In this document: positions 1 to 48,335 of the stretch, piece by piece | Numbering within the stretch: position 1 is the first letter of the stretch | How the letters are laid out: each line of letters opens with the position of its first letter | IMG/VR virus record: IMGVR_UViG_3300000292_000047 | Reading direction: 5' to 3' (one strand) | From: a virus | Lineage: Duplodnaviria > Heunggongvirae > Uroviricota > Caudoviricetes | DNA: 48,335 nucleotides | Program-made: the position numbers and the translations under genes | The notes under the pieces: generated by a model | Seen by the model: only the letters and a program-made list of their open reading frames with translations | Told to the model about the DNA's origin: nothing | Database searches by the model: none

Positions 1-118
1 ATCAGATTTCTCCGGTTTAACCAGGGCGGGTATCGCTCGGTTTCGGGTATAACCTTAGGAAATTTTTTCCCACCTGTAAAGCGCTTTTTATATAAATCTA
101 TAATTATATAATTCTATG
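1..118. repeat. Copy A of ~105-bp conserved promoter/5'-leader repeat (minus-strand sense); first 54 bp identical to window end
   Basis: Near-identical to 7517-7640 and 16999-17108; contains ccggagaaatctgATG (SD + start) in minus sense and AT-rich tatataaatctataattatata block. Confidence 0.8.
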
Positions 119-701: not shown

Positions 702-1008
702 GTTAGTTGTGCCTCCGGCGCTTATCTCCGGCAGTCATAACGCTGACCAGCTCTACAGCAGACACAACGAAAAGGGCACTAACCAGACTGATTAATGCCC
801 TTGCCTGTTGTGTGCCGGATATCGCCCGACAACGCTGTTTTGGTAACACGGCTACAGTTCCGTGCCGCTCCAGCTTTTACCCCTTTGCGGATAACAGGCC
901 CTGCCTGTAACTTAGCCCCACGTTCGCCCGAAATGCGCACCAGGCACGCATAAAGATGAGCACGAAGAAGTAACTCCACCGCGCTTATCTTTATGTGTGA
1001 GGGTGAAT

Positions 1009-1084
1009 TGGTGGCCCCTACCGGATTTGAACCGATGACCGTGCGATTATGAGTCGCCTGCTCTAACCACTAAGCTAAGGGGCC
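1009..1084 (-). tRNA. tRNA with CAT anticodon (Met or Ile2), CCA encoded
   Basis: Minus-strand reading GGCCCCT..CTCATAA..GGTTCAAATCC..AGGGGCCACCA; 7-bp acceptor stem, T-arm ATCGG/CCGGT, anticodon loop CTCATAA. Confidence 0.8.
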
Positions 1085-1092
1085 ATATTTGA

Positions 1093-1168
1093 TTTGTTTG
1101 TCTGGTGTGGCGCCGCGCACGAAAATCCCAGCCAATAAATTCAGGATTTTTGGGCGCGGCGGCATATC
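1093..1168. other. Long near-perfect inverted repeat / extended hairpin next to the tRNA
   Basis: tgtttgtctg...gcgccgcgc...aaaatcc // ggatttt...gcgcggcgg...cagacaaaca; three nested stem segments. Confidence 0.6.
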
Positions 1169-1253
1169 AGACAAACATGGTTGATGCGTGCGCCCATGAG
1201 AAAAGCGCATAGAATGTTGTAACTATATATTTATATAATTATAGAAATATATA

Positions 1254-1463
1254 TTACTTTCGGCAGTTGATTTCCCATGCCCTGTTATGAGCCAGAATAT
1301 CTTTCTTTGTCTGGCGGTCCATAACATCGATGTCGTGATCAGTCAGGTAGATGGGCTTTACCCAATCACAGGCGGTATCAACCACCACCGGGACGCTTCC
1401 ACGACTCCCGCAGCTCGCGATCAACATCGTCATCAGCCATATGGTTAACACTCTGCTGTACAT
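1254..1463 (-). CDS. Rz1-like outer-membrane spanin lipoprotein (overlaps Rz-like gene)
   Basis: 69 aa; signal sequence with lipobox LIAS-C; overlaps 3' end of upstream ORF in another frame; last gene of lysis cassette. Confidence 0.5.
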   Translation of the reverse strand: MYSRVLTIWLMTMLIASCGSRGSVPVVVDTACDWVKPIYLTDHDIDVMDRQTKKDILAHNRAWEINCRK

Positions 1464-1656
1464 TCCCCGCCTCTTTTGTCACTTCTATACGCCGCTCCGC
1501 AGTGGCTTTTACGGCGGCTGCATTCTCATTAATGCGCTGCTTTTCAGCTTCATCTTCGGCCTTTTCTCGCCCCTTCATACGACCAAAACCAAACGCGCCG
1601 AATGCAACCAATATAATTGTGCCAATAAATGACAAAACGGCCTTCAAACCAGTCAT
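1378..1656 (-). CDS. Rz-like inner-membrane spanin
   Basis: 92 aa; N-terminal TM helix then charged coiled-coil-like region; ATGA start/stop overlap with endolysin. Confidence 0.55.
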   Translation of the reverse strand: MTGLKAVLSFIGTIILVAFGAFGFGRMKGREKAEDEAEKQRINENAAAVKATAERRIEVTKEAGNVQQSVNHMADDDVDRELRESWKRPGGG

Positions 1657-2195
1657 ACCACCACTCGCTCTTTCATCCAGCCGTAGACAAACGACTCATT
1701 CGCCTCGCGCTTCTCCGCCAACTCCAGATAGCGTTCGCCCTGCGTACAGTTCAGCGACGTCAGCATCACCCGTTCGCCGTCTTTTCCCCGATTCCCAAGA
1801 TAAGCACGCAGCGCATTAATGGTACGTGGACCGATTCGTCCATCTGCATCCAAATCGGGATACAGCTTCCCACGCAGATTGAACACATTCAGCCAGCGTT
1901 GAAGCATTTTGGACGCCACTGTTGGCCCCATATTCACACCGGTATCACACAGCTCTGCGGCAATATCAGAGGATAATGCGGCCACCTGATCAAAGCGTGG
2001 TCCGTACCAGTAATCAGCCTCAAGGATTTCTAGTGCCTGTTCGCGGGTTAAATCGCGCATATCGCCACGGTATCCATGAGCACGGGCAGTGTTCTGAGTA
2101 ATGCCCCACTTTGTTGGGCCTCCCTTGTCGTCAGGGTGATCCACATAGCCGCCCTCTTTTCCAAGAATGCTGTTAAAAATCTCATCTTTGGTCAT
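1653..2195 (-). CDS. Endolysin, GH108-type muramidase with peptidoglycan-binding domain
   Basis: 180 aa; EGGYVDHPDDKGGPTKWGIT motif typical of GH108 lysozymes. Confidence 0.8.
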   Translation of the reverse strand: MTKDEIFNSILGKEGGYVDHPDDKGGPTKWGITQNTARAHGYRGDMRDLTREQALEILEADYWYGPRFDQVAALSSDIAAELCDTGVNMGPTVASKMLQRWLNVFNLRGKLYPDLDADGRIGPRTINALRAYLGNRGKDGERVMLTSLNCTQGERYLELAEKREANESFVYGWMKERVVV

Positions 2196-2478
2196 GATTA
2201 AATCCTAATGCGTCAACTATCCGCGCCAGATTGCCCCTGAAATACAGAACAACGATGCAGATAATCAGATTTCCAATAACCACCAGCCAGTGGGATTCTT
2301 GATAAAGACCGAACACATAACGGAAGGGAACATTGGCGTATACAATGACGTAGATATAAGCCAGAAAGGAAACAAATGGACGATGCCTGGAGTCTTTCCG
2401 TCGATAAAGCATCAGCGCCATTACTATTACTGTGCAAAGCACCGCATTAATCAGTGCTGACGGGTCACTGCTTACCAT
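2182..2478 (-). CDS. Small multi-pass membrane protein, lysis-associated (holin/antiholin-like)
   Basis: Track start at 2514 is TTG; ATG at 2476-2478 has GGAGGGGG SD; about 3 hydrophobic helices. Confidence 0.45.
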   Translation of the reverse strand: MVSSDPSALINAVLCTVIVMALMLYRRKDSRHRPFVSFLAYIYVIVYANVPFRYVFGLYQESHWLVVIGNLIICIVVLYFRGNLARIVDALGFNHDQR

Positions 2479-2860
2479 TTGAACCCCCTCCACGTAAGCG
2501 GGAAAGTATTCCAAAGATGCTACCGAGATCCTGGCTGTTTACGAACGTGAGGATTTTAATTGTCAATGCAGCCACAATAACCGCACCAAGCGCATCAAGA
2601 GGTCGATCGTTGTAGCTGGTCCATTTGGCAAGAAATGAGCCAACTAACGGCGCTCCAATCACTCCAACAATGAACGATGTAAAGAAATAGCCAATCAGCT
2701 TGAGACGGCTAATATTCACCGCTGTAGCAACATAGAAAACAGCGCCAGCAAATGCCCCGAATACAACGCCGTAATCAATACCAGTTGCAATACCAAAAAC
2801 GCTGGCACCCATCAGGCCACCAGCAGCAACGGCCGTACCGGAAATTGGTTCTGCTGACAT
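2465..2860 (-). CDS. Holin-like membrane protein
   Basis: 131 aa; multiple Gly/Ala-rich TM helices; GAGGA SD; first gene of lysis cassette. Confidence 0.5.
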   Translation of the reverse strand: MSAEPISGTAVAAGGLMGASVFGIATGIDYGVVFGAFAGAVFYVATAVNISRLKLIGYFFTSFIVGVIGAPLVGSFLAKWTSYNDRPLDALGAVIVAALTIKILTFVNSQDLGSIFGILSRLRGGGSNGKQ

Positions 2861-2873
2861 TGAAATCCTCGTT

Positions 2874-2906
2874 AAAAAAAAAGCCCCGCCGAAAAAGGCA
2901 GGGCTT
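2874..2906 (-). terminator. Candidate intrinsic terminator (hairpin + U-run on minus strand)
   Basis: agccccgcc-gaaaaa-ggcagggct hairpin followed on minus strand by T-run (plus-strand A9). Confidence 0.5.
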
Positions 2907-3050
2907 CATAAAGCAACAAATTACGCGGTAATCGCTTAACGCAGTTTTACTACGTTAAATGAAACACTACACCCAGTTACCACCTAAAACAAGGTTTCCC
3001 CATAAAAAAACCTTCAAAATGTGGTTAATCGATCAATAAAAAAACAATAC

Positions 3051-6371: not shown

Positions 6372-6416
6372 TGTCGAGGCGTCCTTATACATTTATATAA
6401 ATATATAATTCTATAT

Positions 6417-6448: not shown

Positions 6449-7516
6449 TCAGGCTTTCAATAGCGATTCTTTCAGATATCGGGCATCAGCCAGGGCGTTT
6501 GGCGTAATCTTGCGAACCCATGCATTACGGGTTGGACTCCACTTAAAGGCGCGTGATTTAAGCAGCGAACGAATGTTTGCCTCTGGTTTGCCAGGGAAAT
6601 AAAACAGGATGCGGTTATCCTCTGGATCTATCTCCATAGAAAAGCCGTCGTATTCTTCGCGCTGTGCTCCTGTTACAGACTTGACCGATTCAAGCTCCTT
6701 AATACGGCTCTGTAGTCGTTTGATTTCGGCGTTATTGTTGCTCAGTGCGTATGAAGGGAATCCGATGCGCCCACAGAAATCTCCGGCCAGTAACTCTTTG
6801 GCTTCGCTTTCTGTAAACCTGAGATCGATTAATGCAGAAAGCTGCTGTATTTGGTCTTTTTTGTATTTGCGAATGGCCTTATTTGCGGCCTTCATTTTGA
6901 CGTGTGACTTCATGCAGCCTTGCAGCTTACGAAGCAACTTAAATAGCGCATCAGGATCATCAGACGAAATTCCATTACGACCAACACCTGCGGCTTTGCT
7001 CTCGTAGTGTGATGCTTTACTTTCGCATTCAACAAACGCTTTTCTGAATAACGCATCAGCTTTAGACAAACGGCGGCGATGGCCTTTCGCGCTATAATGG
7101 TCAACTAAAATCGGCTGGCCTAACGGGATCACATCCAACAGGTCATGCGCTCGCTTATGCGCTACCGCACCTTCTTTTCTGGCTTTTTCTGCACGAGCAA
7201 TATATCGGGCAAGACGCGCGTTCTGGCGTTCCTGATAGGTGTTTACGTAATCATCTCCGCGCTGCTGCTGTTCAAGCCATGCTTTGCGCAGATCTTCTGT
7301 TACGTCCACCAGCTCCGCAGGGATACAACCAGTTTGGGCTTCATAAGAGTAACCATCCTCATAGATACGCCCATCGTCTTCAACAAAGAAAAAGGTTTCG
7401 TGCTCATCGCTTTTGACCATACGACCATTAACATGGCGTAATAGGTAGCCAGTATCAGTGCTTAACAGGCTGTTAGGGTTGTTGATCCAGTCAGAAATAA
7501 TTACTTGTTTATTCAT
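6449..7516 (-). CDS. Conserved hypothetical protein driven by leader copy B (possibly DUF3560-like)
   Basis: 355 aa from ATG 7514-7516 (MNKQVIISDW) immediately after leader SD ccggagaaatctg; family assignment from memory only. Confidence 0.55.
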   Translation of the reverse strand: MNKQVIISDWINNPNSLLSTDTGYLLRHVNGRMVKSDEHETFFFVEDDGRIYEDGYSYEAQTGCIPAELVDVTEDLRKAWLEQQQRGDDYVNTYQERQNARLARYIARAEKARKEGAVAHKRAHDLLDVIPLGQPILVDHYSAKGHRRRLSKADALFRKAFVECESKASHYESKAAGVGRNGISSDDPDALFKLLRKLQGCMKSHVKMKAANKAIRKYKKDQIQQLSALIDLRFTESEAKELLAGDFCGRIGFPSYALSNNNAEIKRLQSRIKELESVKSVTGAQREEYDGFSMEIDPEDNRILFYFPGKPEANIRSLLKSRAFKWSPTRNAWVRKITPNALADARYLKESLLKA

Positions 7517-7640
7517 CAGATTTCTCCGGTTTAACCAGGGCGGGTATCGCTCGGTTTCGGGTATAACCATAGGAAATTTTTTCCCACCTGTAAAGCACTT
7601 TTTATATAAATCTATAATTATATATTTATAGATTTTCGAT
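7517..7640. repeat. Copy B of ~105-bp promoter/5'-leader repeat
   Basis: Near-identical to 1-118 and 16999-17108. Confidence 0.85.
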
Positions 7641-11360: not shown

Positions 11361-11460
11361 TGATTATAGATTTATATAATTATATAAAACGCTTTTCATC
11401 CGCCAAAAAGTTGGTTATGCTTACCTCGTTCTATAAATATAGATTTATAGAATTATATAA
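11361..11460. promoter_or_regulatory. AT-rich repeat block upstream of parA (candidate centromere/operator)
   Basis: ttatagatttatataattatataa and ctataaatatagatttatagaattatataa; same motif as in leader repeats. Confidence 0.55.
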
Positions 11461-12137: not shown

Positions 12138-12168
12138 TATATAATTATAGTTTTATAGATTTATATAA
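12136..12168. promoter_or_regulatory. AT-rich repeat block between parA and parG-like gene
   Basis: atataattatagttttatagatttatata. Confidence 0.5.
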
Positions 12169-12180
12169 GAGGGGATACAC

Positions 12181-12429
12181 ATGGCCGGACCATCAAAACC
12201 ACCAAAGAAGAACAGCAAAGGCGTACCGCCATCGATCGAACAACCGCAGGTTTTCGACCCGACTGAAACGCCAACCAGAACCAAATCAGGTGGGGCACAA
12301 ATGGCGTTTAACGTCGACCCTGAATTTAAACGCGAGTACAAAACGTTCGCCAGCTCAATGGATATGTCATTGAAAGAAGTGCTGACAAAATCTTTTGAGT
12401 TACTCAAGGCTCAATACAACCAGAAGTAA
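12181..12429 (+). CDS. ParG-like ribbon-helix-helix centromere-binding protein
   Basis: 82 aa immediately after ParA; basic unstructured N-terminus then predicted beta-strand/helix segment; AGAGGGG SD. Confidence 0.55.
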   Translation: MAGPSKPPKKNSKGVPPSIEQPQVFDPTETPTRTKSGGAQMAFNVDPEFKREYKTFASSMDMSLKEVLTKSFELLKAQYNQK

Positions 12430-16610: not shown

Positions 16611-16991
16611 TTACTTAACGAGGAATAAAAATGGTTTATCGTTCGGCGGTGTAATCGGGGCTGGCTCGCTTTTGCTCATGCGATCAGTGTACCAGGCCAA
16701 CTCCTTGTCAAAGTAAGCCTGATTAAAATAGGCCATGAATGTGGTTTCAAATCCATAACGACCGCTAATACGCAGCATCTGATTGCCGTTCTCTGTTTCC
16801 AGATATACCTGGGCACGTTCCTGATTCTCCTTCAGCCAGGTTAAAGCCTCATCGCACGAGGACAAACGATACTCATCATCGTAGCCGTCATCGATGCGGC
16901 TTGAAGAAGAACGGCAAATCACGCCAACAGAACCAGCCAGGATAGTTTGAATTTTAAGGAAAGCGTTTTTGCGGATTTTAATCATGCTCAT
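16611..16991 (-). CDS. Hypothetical protein driven by leader copy C
   Basis: 126 aa; ATG 16989-16991 directly after leader. Confidence 0.55.
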   Translation of the reverse strand: MSMIKIRKNAFLKIQTILAGSVGVICRSSSSRIDDGYDDEYRLSSCDEALTWLKENQERAQVYLETENGNQMLRISGRYGFETTFMAYFNQAYFDKELAWYTDRMSKSEPAPITPPNDKPFLFLVK

Positions 16992-16998
16992 CGGGTTA

Positions 16999-17108
16999 TC
17001 TCCGGTTTAACCAGGGCGAGTATCGCTCGGTTTCGGGCATAACCTTAGGAAATTTTTTCCCACCTGTAAAGCACTTTTTATATAAATCTATAATTATATA
17101 ATTCTATG
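16999..17108. repeat. Copy C of ~105-bp promoter/5'-leader repeat
   Basis: 3 substitutions relative to copy A; SD-proximal end diverged. Confidence 0.85.
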
Positions 17109-17112
17109 ATCA

Positions 17113-18999: not shown

Positions 19000-19260
19000 C
19001 AGGCAAAGCCTGCGTAAGTTAAATAAAGAAAGTCTTAATAAAAGAAAGTGATTTTGCATTTATTTGTTTAGTGCATCTATTATAAAAAACCATTTGCATA
19101 TACATATCAGAACTGTGGATAACTTTATTAGCCGATGCCTGTAAAGGCGATATTTTTGCTGTGTTCAGGTTTAGAGAAAATTAATTTAGATTGTTTTTTG
19201 AACAGATATTTTATTGCGACGTAGATAATCCTCCGGTAAAACCGGATTCATCATTCAGGT
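19000..19260. promoter_or_regulatory. Candidate replication origin downstream of repA (AT-rich, DnaA box)
   Basis: Perfect DnaA box TTATCCACA on minus strand at 19114-19122; AT-rich flanks. Confidence 0.5.
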
Positions 19261-48014: not shown

Positions 48015-48283
48015 CACTCATCATCTCCTGCCGCACATACAACCTCACAAAAAAAATCAGCAGAATGTTTCTCCTTGAACGAATGACGCTCAAAACCGCA
48101 CTCAATATCAGGCGCAAAAACATCCACCACATACGGTCTTTCAGAATGTTTGTTTTCCCAACGATAAACCGTAGTGACGTTGAAATGTTTTAACGCTTCA
48201 CGGAACTCAACGCTGCCCGTCAGGTTTTTTGAGGTCAGGTATTGCAGGAGGTTTTTTACTACTTCACGGTCTTGTACTTTCAT
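48014..48283 (-). CDS. Hypothetical protein, first gene behind leader copy A/D
   Basis: 89 aa; ATG 48281-48283 directly after ccggagaaatctg. Confidence 0.5.
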   Translation of the reverse strand: MKVQDREVVKNLLQYLTSKNLTGSVEFREALKHFNVTTVYRWENKHSERPYVVDVFAPDIECGFERHSFKEKHSADFFCEVVCAAGDDE

Positions 48284-48335
48284 CAGATTTCTCCGGTTTA
48301 ACCAGGGCGGGTATCGCTCGGTTTCGGGTATAACC
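48282..48335. repeat. Copy D of leader repeat, identical to window positions 1-54
   Basis: 54/54 identity with window start. Confidence 0.9.

Follow-up and report, generated by a model that had tools for sequence, protein, structure and literature searches.

A long hairpin under selection for pairing, with a bias to one strand, beside a probable tRNA-Ile2 gene in an Escherichia coli phage-plasmid

Several well-described signals of phages and plasmids offer points of comparison for the locus reported here. The ssi and pas signals, which include the phiX174-type pas, the G4-type ssi, and ssiA/ssiB of the RSF1010 oriV, are orientation-specific, imperfect hairpins of 70-100 nt that lie beside AT-rich repeats. 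Partition systems provide a second group, with the dispersed centromeres of the N15 sopC type, the ParG-parH system of TP228, and the omega heptads of pSM19035. A third comparison is with origins of transfer (oriT): in RSF1010, R1162 and RP4, a short inverted repeat ends about 8 nt 5' of the nick. We analysed a stretch of DNA of 48,335 bp (IMG/VR virus record IMGVR_UViG_3300000292_000047; hereafter, the window), which is a complete circular phage-plasmid, and focused on a non-coding locus in which a tRNA gene on the minus strand (1009-1084) is followed by a long imperfect inverted repeat (1095-1177) and an AT-rich array of 8-bp units (1223-1254). The tRNA and all neighbouring genes are encoded on the minus strand, which we refer to as the sense strand. 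Judged by its likeness to the systems above, the hairpin formed by the inverted repeat would work most like an orientation-specific DNA hairpin signal.

The arms of the hairpin span 1095-1128 and 1144-1177. Each is 34 nt long, 85% of the pairs between them are Watson-Crick pairs, and they enclose a 15-nt loop. This is the longest inverted repeat in the entire window, and there is one copy per element. An earlier interpretation of the locus, made from the letters of the window (the sequence-only reading), had placed the hairpin at 1093-1168; the structure it described is real, but 9 nt of the distal arm had been missed. The three nested stem segments that it reported correspond to helices of 15, 8 and 9 bp, with single mismatches between them, in the predicted fold of the plus strand, for which the minimum free energy as RNA is -53.5 kcal/mol (z = -8.6). 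The sense strand is predicted to fold into helices of 10, 8 and 9 bp with internal loops, and has a minimum free energy of -40.3 kcal/mol (z = -7.0), a value as low as which was reached by none of 200 shuffled sequences. There is no U-tract or T-run after the stem on either strand, and at the hairpin a scan of both strands, which did flag 802-772 and 2907-2880, detected neither a sigma-70 promoter nor a terminator. We therefore reject an intrinsic terminator for both strands, as the sequence-only reading had done.

We compared eight distinct alleles of the hairpin from three lineages: an E. coli type, a Salmonella type, and a third type represented by the IMG/VR contig L030. The E. coli-type hairpin is invariant in the copies examined, apart from single-site variants in L117 and ECOR39, and about 70 plasmids of the E. 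coli group are 95-100% identical over a 116-nt query. The Salmonella-type hairpin (serovars Concord and Weltevreden, subsp. salamae and the metagenome contig L105) shows 76-80% identity, and the L030 hairpin 72%. Across the alleles, 8 of the 34 pairs have changed on both sides in a compensatory manner, and 89.7% of cells in the alignment are paired; these values were reached by none of 500 shuffles. As a control, we slid the pairing partner by 1-3 columns, which reduced pairing to 33-47%. In the salamae allele, four substitutions make the arms perfectly complementary over 23 bp. Sequence conservation is confined to the base of the stem (GTTTGnCTG) and its top (CGAAAAtCC), with the middle covarying. 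The hairpin is thus neither absent from relatives nor unconserved in them and, because compensatory double changes have occurred at 8 of 34 pairs, we conclude that base pairing is under selection. More distant loci lack the module; these include loci with a ParB-methyltransferase at 70% and 53% identity, and prophages of ~40 kb with a 78% identical MT-A70 gene. A structure-based pattern scan of viral contigs revealed no new lineages. Two groups that we considered as potential relatives were set aside: the phage of the vB_YpM_HQ103 paper is an unrelated 32-kb phage, and the pSLy3 group is related to SSU5 and lies outside the phage-plasmid family studied here.

The sequence-only reading implied a link between the hairpin and the tRNA, and a three-way alignment of the whole interval from the lysis genes to the MT-A70 gene (E. 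coli type, Salmonella type and L030) argues against one. All three Salmonella plasmids lack a tRNA in this region and have kept the hairpin, as has contig L105. In L030, about 320 nt of other non-coding sequence separates the hairpin from the tRNA. This intervening sequence is partly present in Salmonella, where the site of the tRNA is occupied by a ~60-nt filler that is not a tRNA, and has been lost from the E. coli type, where the tRNA lies 10 nt from the hairpin. The tRNAs of the E. coli type and L030 occupy a homologous site, just upstream of a second stem that is described below. Hence, the adjacency of tRNA and hairpin in E. coli results from deletion of the intervening sequence, and the hairpin is not an accessory of the tRNA, since the Salmonella relatives retain it without one. 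Host tRNA loci, where the sequence-only reading had suggested looking, do not carry the hairpin in any of 5426 E. coli genomes. There is very little doubt, in our view, that the hairpin is independent of the tRNA and is selected for pairing. An apparent 11-nt extension of the tRNA similarity into D6 phage did not reflect a shared hairpin.

Similarity between the lineages extends from the foot of the hairpin (1096) to the stop codon of the last lysis gene (1254). The alignment thus points to a non-coding module of ~160 bp (1095-1254) that has been retained while both of its flanks were exchanged and that sits where an exchangeable lysis cassette meets a variable non-coding island containing the tRNA and a putative non-coding RNA. 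In the sense direction, the module consists of the AT-rich 8-bp-repeat array, GTTACAACATTC, a GC motif, and the hairpin. The array (1223-1254) is made of TTATAKAW units, is a near-palindrome of 32 bp, and is identical in the E. coli and Salmonella lineages. The invariant GTTACAACATTC (1212-1223, minus strand) includes a weak -35-like GTTACA on the sense strand and is unique in the element. The spacer between this sequence and the hairpin (1178-1211) contains the conserved GC motif, (G/T)GCGCC(C), at 1188-1195; small local hairpins in the spacer are not conserved in structure between lineages. No DnaA boxes were found near the module and, on inspection by eye, the spacer contains no convincing or conserved match to XerCD dif/cer-like sites, to IHF sites, or to dyads of the Mu C or P2 Ogr type.

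For every allele of the hairpin, the plus-strand fold is the more stable of the two; the plus strand is antisense to the tRNA and all neighbouring genes. The predicted energies for the plus and minus strands (in kcal/mol) are -53.5 and -40.3 as RNA, and -33.4 and -24.6 as DNA, for the E. coli allele; -48.2 and -44.8 as RNA, and -37.6 and -25.4 as DNA, for the Concord allele; -59.1 and -56.0 as RNA, and -41.3 and -34.0 as DNA, for the salamae allele; and -54.9 and -45.7 as RNA, and -33.4 and -26.9 as DNA, for the L030 allele. The difference lies in the imperfect pairs. There are 15 cells with G.U or G.T on the plus strand, at 8 pair positions (about nine independent events by our own count), versus a single such cell on the minus strand. 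By our reading of the aligned alleles, other mismatches are purine-purine on the plus strand (G.G and G.A) and hence C.C and C.U on the minus strand, such that the best-tolerated mismatches are confined to the plus strand and the worst to the sense strand. The direction of the bias agrees in every lineage. A neighbouring structured element of ~135 nt, of which we folded the sense strand only, serves as an internal control, since it places its G.U pairs on the sense strand. Mutational bias, to judge from the negative GC skew of the plus strand, would if anything have acted in the other direction. Had the structure been selected in the sense transcript, G.U pairs would be expected on the sense strand and A.C on the other strand; the reverse is seen, which disfavours a processing or terminator role for the sense RNA.

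We tentatively favour an overall explanation in which two independent features lie side by side: the tRNA-Ile2 gene and the hairpin module. For the hairpin, readings based on sense RNA are weakened and an antisense RNA is unlikely, and we therefore lean, with some reserve, towards a role at the level of DNA. Such a role could take two forms, a hairpin of the plus strand, which we favour, or a duplex palindrome with selection against the hairpin in the sense RNA. In the favoured form, the hairpin would be a strand-specific DNA structure: the plus strand would fold once the adjacent AT array, which melts easily, has opened, or while the plus strand is single-stranded during replication, and the folded strand would serve as a recognition or priming-type signal, whether ssi- or origin-like or the site of a structure-specific protein. 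The hairpin would then have no tRNA-processing, leader or terminator duty in the sense transcript. We consider this plus-strand function possible, with a little over one-third strength of belief. Like the phiX174-type pas, the G4-type ssi, and ssiA/ssiB of RSF1010, the hairpin is orientation-specific, imperfect and adjacent to AT-rich sequence, and its structure is better conserved than its sequence; unlike those signals, it lies 18 kb from the plasmid origin, and the searches described below found no primase; the likeness is one of architecture.

Several observations weigh against a plus-strand DNA signal. We know of no process at this locus that would make the plus strand single-stranded; the plasmid origin, with repA, a DnaA box (19114-19122) and AT repeats, is about 18 kb away; and searches of the unannotated proteins with Pfam and PHROGs found no primase, relaxase or HUH nuclease. 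The sense strand is almost certainly transcribed, and the predicted fold of this RNA still reaches -40 kcal/mol. Statistical support for the strand bias is thin, with 8 alleles from 3 lineages and about 9:1 events (two-sided binomial p about 0.02), and allele L117 has a wobble pair on the sense strand. Lastly, a double-stranded palindrome that is needed as such, combined with selection against the hairpin in sense RNA, would give the same asymmetry. A bolder version, in which the hairpin is a single-stranded DNA signal that either mimics an oriT and hitch-hikes on conjugation, or is a priming or loading site coupled to a protein-bound AT array, appears rather improbable; if true, a double-stranded DNA phage would gain a second life-cycle step based on single-stranded DNA. 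The strand bias provides a testable handle on whether a double-stranded DNA phage-plasmid uses a single-stranded DNA signal.

The alternative that survives best is that the hairpin is an element of the sense RNA. As such, it might be processed by RNase III or RNase E, form the 5' leader of the pre-tRNA, or act from the 3' end of the lysis mRNA to stabilise or retro-regulate it. The RNA in question could be part of a late polycistronic transcript, or a transcript of the tRNA and non-coding RNA island that starts in the AT-array module. Since the neighbouring genes are all on the minus strand, reading of the operon must make the hairpin RNA, which would be mostly double-stranded over 34 bp at the strongly negative energy given above (z = -7). 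The hairpin also directly follows the stop codon of the last lysis gene and, in E. coli, is only 10 nt upstream of the tRNA; the terminator-like sequence at 802-772 and the terminator before the holin gene make discrete transcription units plausible; and, by our reading, the conserved upstream block contains a perfect TATAAT (1243-1238) in addition to GTTACA. The sense fold contains at least about two helical turns of double-stranded RNA, the extent required by RNase III, although cleavage itself is a prediction. The RNase III-processed R sites of T7 and the sib element of lambda are the obvious precedents, and the hairpin here is likewise a long, mismatched stem that has no U-tract and lies between cistrons of a polycistronic transcript; it differs in pairing better on the non-sense strand, and the comparison does not presume that it is cleaved. 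That difference is the main difficulty, since the mismatches on the sense strand (A.C, C.C and C.U) are those least tolerated, while the complementary strand has G.U, G.G and G.A. In addition, the promoter scan found no sigma-70-type site, and the hairpin is retained where there is no tRNA to process. The suggestion of the sequence-only reading that the hairpin might be a processing site is thus weakened by the systematically worse pairing of the transcribed strand, even though the sense RNA still folds, and we regard a sense-RNA element as somewhat unlikely.

A second alternative is a double-stranded palindromic protein site, or a cruciform, bound by an element-encoded oligomer, with arms that are homogenised by gene conversion within the palindrome and a strand asymmetry that reflects selection against an over-stable hairpin in the sense transcript. 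Its position next to a dispersed, operator-like AT array would suit such a site, as would the conservation of GTTTGnCTG at the base and CGAAAAtCC at the top around a variable middle, and the salamae allele, with its perfectly complementary 23 bp, looks homogenised. However, arms of 34 bp far exceed those of usual operators, the half-site motifs are not reused elsewhere in the element, and the 8 covarying pairs demand repeated co-evolution or conversion. We consider this alternative unlikely.

Transcription of the opposite strand, to give a small antisense RNA with the hairpin as its body or 3' end, would account for the G.U pairs, which favour plus-strand RNA as much as plus-strand DNA, and the sub-threshold matches to generic hairpin precursors in Rfam (mir-249, 30.7 bits versus a threshold of 70; MIR1432, 29.3 versus 90) are on the plus strand. 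Nonetheless, the plus-strand sequence that precedes the hairpin is not conserved: in E. coli it is the complement of the tRNA, to which the Salmonella sequence is unrelated. The scan found neither a promoter-like site nor a U-tract, and the surrounding region has no plus-strand genes. An antisense RNA is therefore very unlikely. Each arm also contains a pair of hexamers that weakly resembles a promoter, TTGnCT-N17-(G/A)AAAAT (1169-1174/1146-1151 on the minus strand and 1098-1103/1121-1126 on the plus strand), in each case pointing into the loop; it matches at 8 of 12 positions, below the threshold of the scan, overlaps the conserved base and top of the stem, and may be a coincidence of the palindrome.

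Similarly improbable, and a shade more so, is a mimic of a MOBQ/RSF1010-like oriT, in which the plus strand would be transferred after nicking between GTGCG and CCC by a relaxase supplied in trans by a co-resident plasmid. The plus strand has an exact 8-mer, GTGCGCCC, at 1188-1195, located 10 nt 3' of the repeat and beside an AT-rich tract, and the plus-strand bias of the hairpin is what would be expected of a hairpin on a transferred strand. As in the oriT of RSF1010 and R1162, an inverted repeat thus lies 5' of GTGCGCCC, with an AT-rich flank. By contrast, 15 nt instead of 8 would separate the repeat from the putative nick, and the 34-nt arms compare with arms of about 10 nt in those plasmids. 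GTGCGCCC is the core of the MOBQ consensus NWACCNNTAAGTGCGCCCTYNN (PMC3832669). When the module is compared to the consensus for the MOBQ nick region, TAAGTGCGCCCT, the 8-mer is exact but the core 12-mer matches at only 9 of 12 positions, a level of match seen 20 times in the window versus 33 expected by chance. The motif is not conserved in relatives, being GTGGGCGCCC in Salmonella and GTGGGCGCCA in L030. There is no relaxase among the unannotated proteins or in the RefSeq annotation, MOB-suite classifies the plasmids as non-mobilizable, and a systematic survey found no known oriTs in E. coli phage-plasmids (PMC10123127). The case against an oriT is stronger than the case for it.

Although the lack of an assignable function and the position at a non-coding junction with mosaic exchange might suggest a neutral relic (a chance palindrome, a decayed MITE/REP-like insertion, or a remnant of a duplication), this is barely credible given the compensatory changes, the retention of the hairpin across lineages of 72-80% identity while its flanks were replaced, its invariance among the E. 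coli-type copies examined, and its restriction to the phage-plasmid family.

The hairpin fits none of the established classes with which we compared it, namely Rfam families, terminators, MITE/REP elements, attC sites and MOBQ oriTs. A search of the window and three relatives with Rfam 15 gave nothing at or above the gathering threshold at the hairpin. It is not a dispersed repeat of the MITE, REP or ERIC kind: it occurs at 71 places in the 5426 E. coli genomes, 70 of which are on the phage-plasmid family, at one per plasmid, and there were no matches in other phages or plasmids. An attC site is rejected because the base of the stem, 5'-GTTTGYC...GRCAAAC-3', is the reverse of the R'' RYYYAAC ... 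R' GTTRRRY arrangement, and because pECO-b75, the closely related E. coli plasmid described below, has no integrase; a telomere-resolvase site is rejected because the records are circular and the loop lacks palindromic symmetry. We also rejected two open reading frames (ORFs). One, a small ORF through the hairpin, would encode an MGA... peptide that differs in length between E. coli (18 aa) and Salmonella (41 aa); it lacks a Shine-Dalgarno sequence, and in L030 its reading frame is not kept. The other, an 85-aa ORF on the plus strand that ends at the Salmonella hairpin, has substitutions without third-position bias and is truncated by the tRNA in L030. What is left as novel is a hairpin that is limited to a narrow clade, selected and strand-biased, and coupled to a dispersed repeat array. 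This is no major surprise, and the module is of modest interest as an unannotated, selected cis element of a family found in about 1.3% of complete E. coli genomes.

The AT-rich array beside the hairpin is one of several. The motif TCTATAATTATATAA occurs 17 times in the element with at most 2 mismatches, versus 0.21 expected, and matches to the 16-mer TTATAGATTTATATAA come in runs with 8-bp spacing, giving arrays of 3-4 TTATAKAW octamers. The motif scan placed arrays at 88-113, 1223-1254, 6385-6416, 7602-7633, 11364-11387, 11437-11460, 12145-12168 and 17078-17109. About eight intergenic array positions are the same in the E. coli element and in a Salmonella Weltevreden plasmid (L134). Two arrays are just upstream of parA and one is between parA and a gene for an 82-aa protein; the others precede each of three genes that have a ~120-bp repeat, follow the DUF3560 gene, or lie beside the hairpin. 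A scan of genome contigs with the AT motif gave only chance matches, in Brachyspira and Synergistia. The ~120-bp repeat is present in three minus-strand copies (1-118, wrapping to 48279-48335; 7512-7629; and 16988-17110), which precede an 89-aa ORF after the MT-A70 gene, the DUF3560 gene and a 126-aa ORF, respectively; each copy comprises an AT array, TTTACA-N17-TAAGGT, an identical leader of ~70 nt, GGAG and ATG.

By analogy with known partition systems, the arrays look like operator or centromere sites for a single element-encoded protein. The array by the hairpin would then be one of about eight such sites, and the candidate binder is the 82-aa protein encoded after parA (12181-12429). The identity of ParA was confirmed. 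Like N15 sopC, TP228 parH and the omega heptads of pSM19035, the arrays consist of short repeats, here with an 8-bp period; some flank parA and several others are promoter-proximal sites across the phage genome. Their positions are conserved between lineages, and they are placed as expected for the centromeres and operators of a type Ib system. They differ from the sites of described partition proteins in that their binding protein is a candidate only: the 82-aa protein has no match in Pfam, no significant match among PDB sequences and no fold match. In an AlphaFold2 model of the monomer, the N-terminus is basic and disordered, and only two helices, both towards the C-terminus, are predicted with confidence. 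This is compatible with a ribbon-helix-helix protein; assignment to that family is unproven, which weighs against this part of our explanation. The dispersed arrays suggest a regulon linked to a partition protein, like that of N15.

The tRNA itself is ordinary. ARAGORN detected a single tRNA gene, at exactly 1009-1084 on the minus strand, with anticodon CAT, and the Rfam tRNA model gave 65.8 bits (E 3.6e-13; gathering score 29), in agreement with the 76-nt tRNA with encoded 3' CCA that the sequence-only reading had described between the lysis cassette and the MT-A70 gene; the RefSeq annotation of a 97-99% identical plasmid places it likewise. That reading had left open whether the tRNA is Met or Ile2. 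ARAGORN labels it Met, a label that depends on the anticodon alone. However, across its 76 nt the tRNA shares 88.2% identity with a chromosomal tRNA-Ile that is present in 5426 of 5426 E. coli genomes, at a median of 2 places per genome; the K-12 copy sits between mug and nfeF, and we take it to be ileX. Identity reaches 93.4% with the tRNA-Ile of P1-like plasmids, and is only 72.7% with the elongator tRNA-Met (metT), for which we checked that our reference sequence is a 100% match to the annotated tRNA-Met of 5424 genomes. All BLAST matches listed for the tRNA are annotated as tRNA-Ile, save one weak plasmid match over a hypothetical protein, and the PGAP/RefSeq label in pECO-b75 and relatives is tRNA-Ile. 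The acceptor stem, GGCCCCU/AGGGGCC, gives the pairs C4:G69 and C5:G68, as in ileX, where the tRNA-Met has U4:A69 and A5:U68; pairs 4:69 and 5:68 are major identity elements for E. coli TilS (PMC11947777). Because the identity to ileX and the P1 tRNA, the TilS determinants, and the annotation as tRNA-Ile outweigh a Met label based on the anticodon, 1009-1084 is very probably a lysidine-type tRNA-Ile2 gene rather than a tRNA-Met gene. This identity was already annotated in RefSeq relatives; it corrects a common Met mis-call of tools that consider only the anticodon.

As judged from its sequence, the tRNA would have its CAU anticodon converted to lysidine by host TilS and would then read AUA. This codon is used at 16.1 per 1000 codons in the 65 annotated coding sequences of pECO-b75, where it makes up 25% of Ile codons; several genes for the tail and baseplate use it at 36-61 per 1000. 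AUA use in E. coli is 4.9 per 1000 (PMC12514573), such that use in the element is 3.3 times higher. The tRNA is long-standing cargo of this phage-plasmid family, in the usual role of rare-codon tRNAs carried by phages, and adds one more temperate element with its own AUA decoder. It shares the CAU anticodon with ileX and ileY, and the acceptor stem GGCCCCU and the anticodon stem-loop with ileX; it differs from ileX in the T-arm and the variable region, in having G.A rather than G.U at 27:43, and, in the allele of the window, in having U13.G22. The tRNA-Ile of P1/P7 and ileZ of Stx phages are likewise in the late or lysis region of an AUA-rich temperate phage. Unlike ileX and the phage copies, the tRNA here belongs to a non-coding island whose Salmonella relatives have lost the tRNA. 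Position 13 of the tRNA (window position 1072), which forms the U13.G22 wobble pair in the D stem, is C in pECO-b75 and most relatives, as in ileX; the U is shared by a minority of metagenome and IMG/VR copies. The tRNA of L030 (1986-2061) is a different, Ile2-like tRNA at the homologous site, with the same acceptor stem but other anticodon and T stems. The filler at this site in Salmonella (L003 about 2790-2860, minus strand) is possibly a decayed tRNA, and a ~165-nt segment upstream contains CCGAGCGGATTGCAGCGCCGGTC, which by our own reading resembles the D-arm of a class II tRNA.

Just 3' of the tRNA is a second hairpin (945-999, minus strand), which is the remnant closing stem of the ~135-nt structured element mentioned above. 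This element is intact in L030 (2067-2203) and in Salmonella (L003 about 2635-2780, minus strand). There, the closing stem is 18 bp long and includes 4 compensatory pairs, and the sense strand is the one with G.U pairs; nothing but the closing stem is left in the E. coli type. The element has no match in Rfam. The end of the tRNA and non-coding RNA island is formed by a conserved non-coding stretch of ~170 nt (772-944, minus strand), in which a terminator-like hairpin (802-772) is followed by TTTTCGTTGTGT; the stretch is conserved in three lineages, and the terminator-like stem differs in sequence yet is maintained. The leader of the MT-A70 gene (704-759, minus strand) gave repeated sub-threshold matches to rydB, at 26-29 bits versus a gathering score of 50. 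The gene itself, which encodes an MT-A70 family methyltransferase, occupies 114-701 on the minus strand.

On the other side of the module, the lysis cassette (1254-2860, minus strand) consists of two holin-family genes, a GH108 endolysin gene and spanin-like ORFs. It has been swapped for an unrelated lysozyme/spanin set in the Salmonella relatives, which have a lysozyme where the E. coli type has GH108. Directly upstream of the first holin gene is a strong intrinsic terminator (2880-2907, minus strand) with an 11-bp stem and a T-run of at least 8, preceded by ~130 nt of non-coding sequence that extends to about 3040. By analogy with the PR'-tR' layout of lambda, the lysis and late genes would need read-through or antitermination past 2880-2907; we identified no candidate antiterminator for this layout.

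The window is co-linear with the E. coli plasmid pECO-b75 (NZ_CP009861), at 97-99.8% identity. In the RefSeq annotation, pECO-b75 has the genes of a temperate, myovirus-type phage (terminase, portal, ClpP protease, capsid, sheath, tube, P2-like baseplate and tail fibres) together with the plasmid genes for RepA, ParA and a RelE/ParE toxin-antitoxin pair. Near-identical copies are present in 70 of the 5426 complete E. coli genomes (~1.3%), nearly all as plasmids of 46-52 kb, and the reference strain E. coli ATCC 25922 harbours the element. Further carriers are plasmids of E. albertii, E. fergusonii and Klebsiella aerogenes, and the Yersinia phages vB_YpM_39/41/44; the family is also present in Salmonella plasmids. 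About 50 nt are repeated at the two ends of the window (1-57 and 48279-48335), and both ends map to one position in pECO-b75, consistent with the overlap of a circular contig and not with a real tandem duplication. The probable plasmid origin (18500-19300) lies beside repA; it has tandem AT-rich 15-mers (19019-19049) and, besides the perfect DnaA box at 19114-19122, two near-matches to this box (18537 and 18613). Every gene of the window between the early operon and the tail genes, these included, is on the minus strand, and in pECO-b75 every coding sequence between 7852 and 44372 is on one strand (RefSeq). The GC skew of the plus strand is negative in all 2-kb bins across the window, with no switch point, which is consistent with the near-total co-orientation of genes, with unidirectional replication, or with both.

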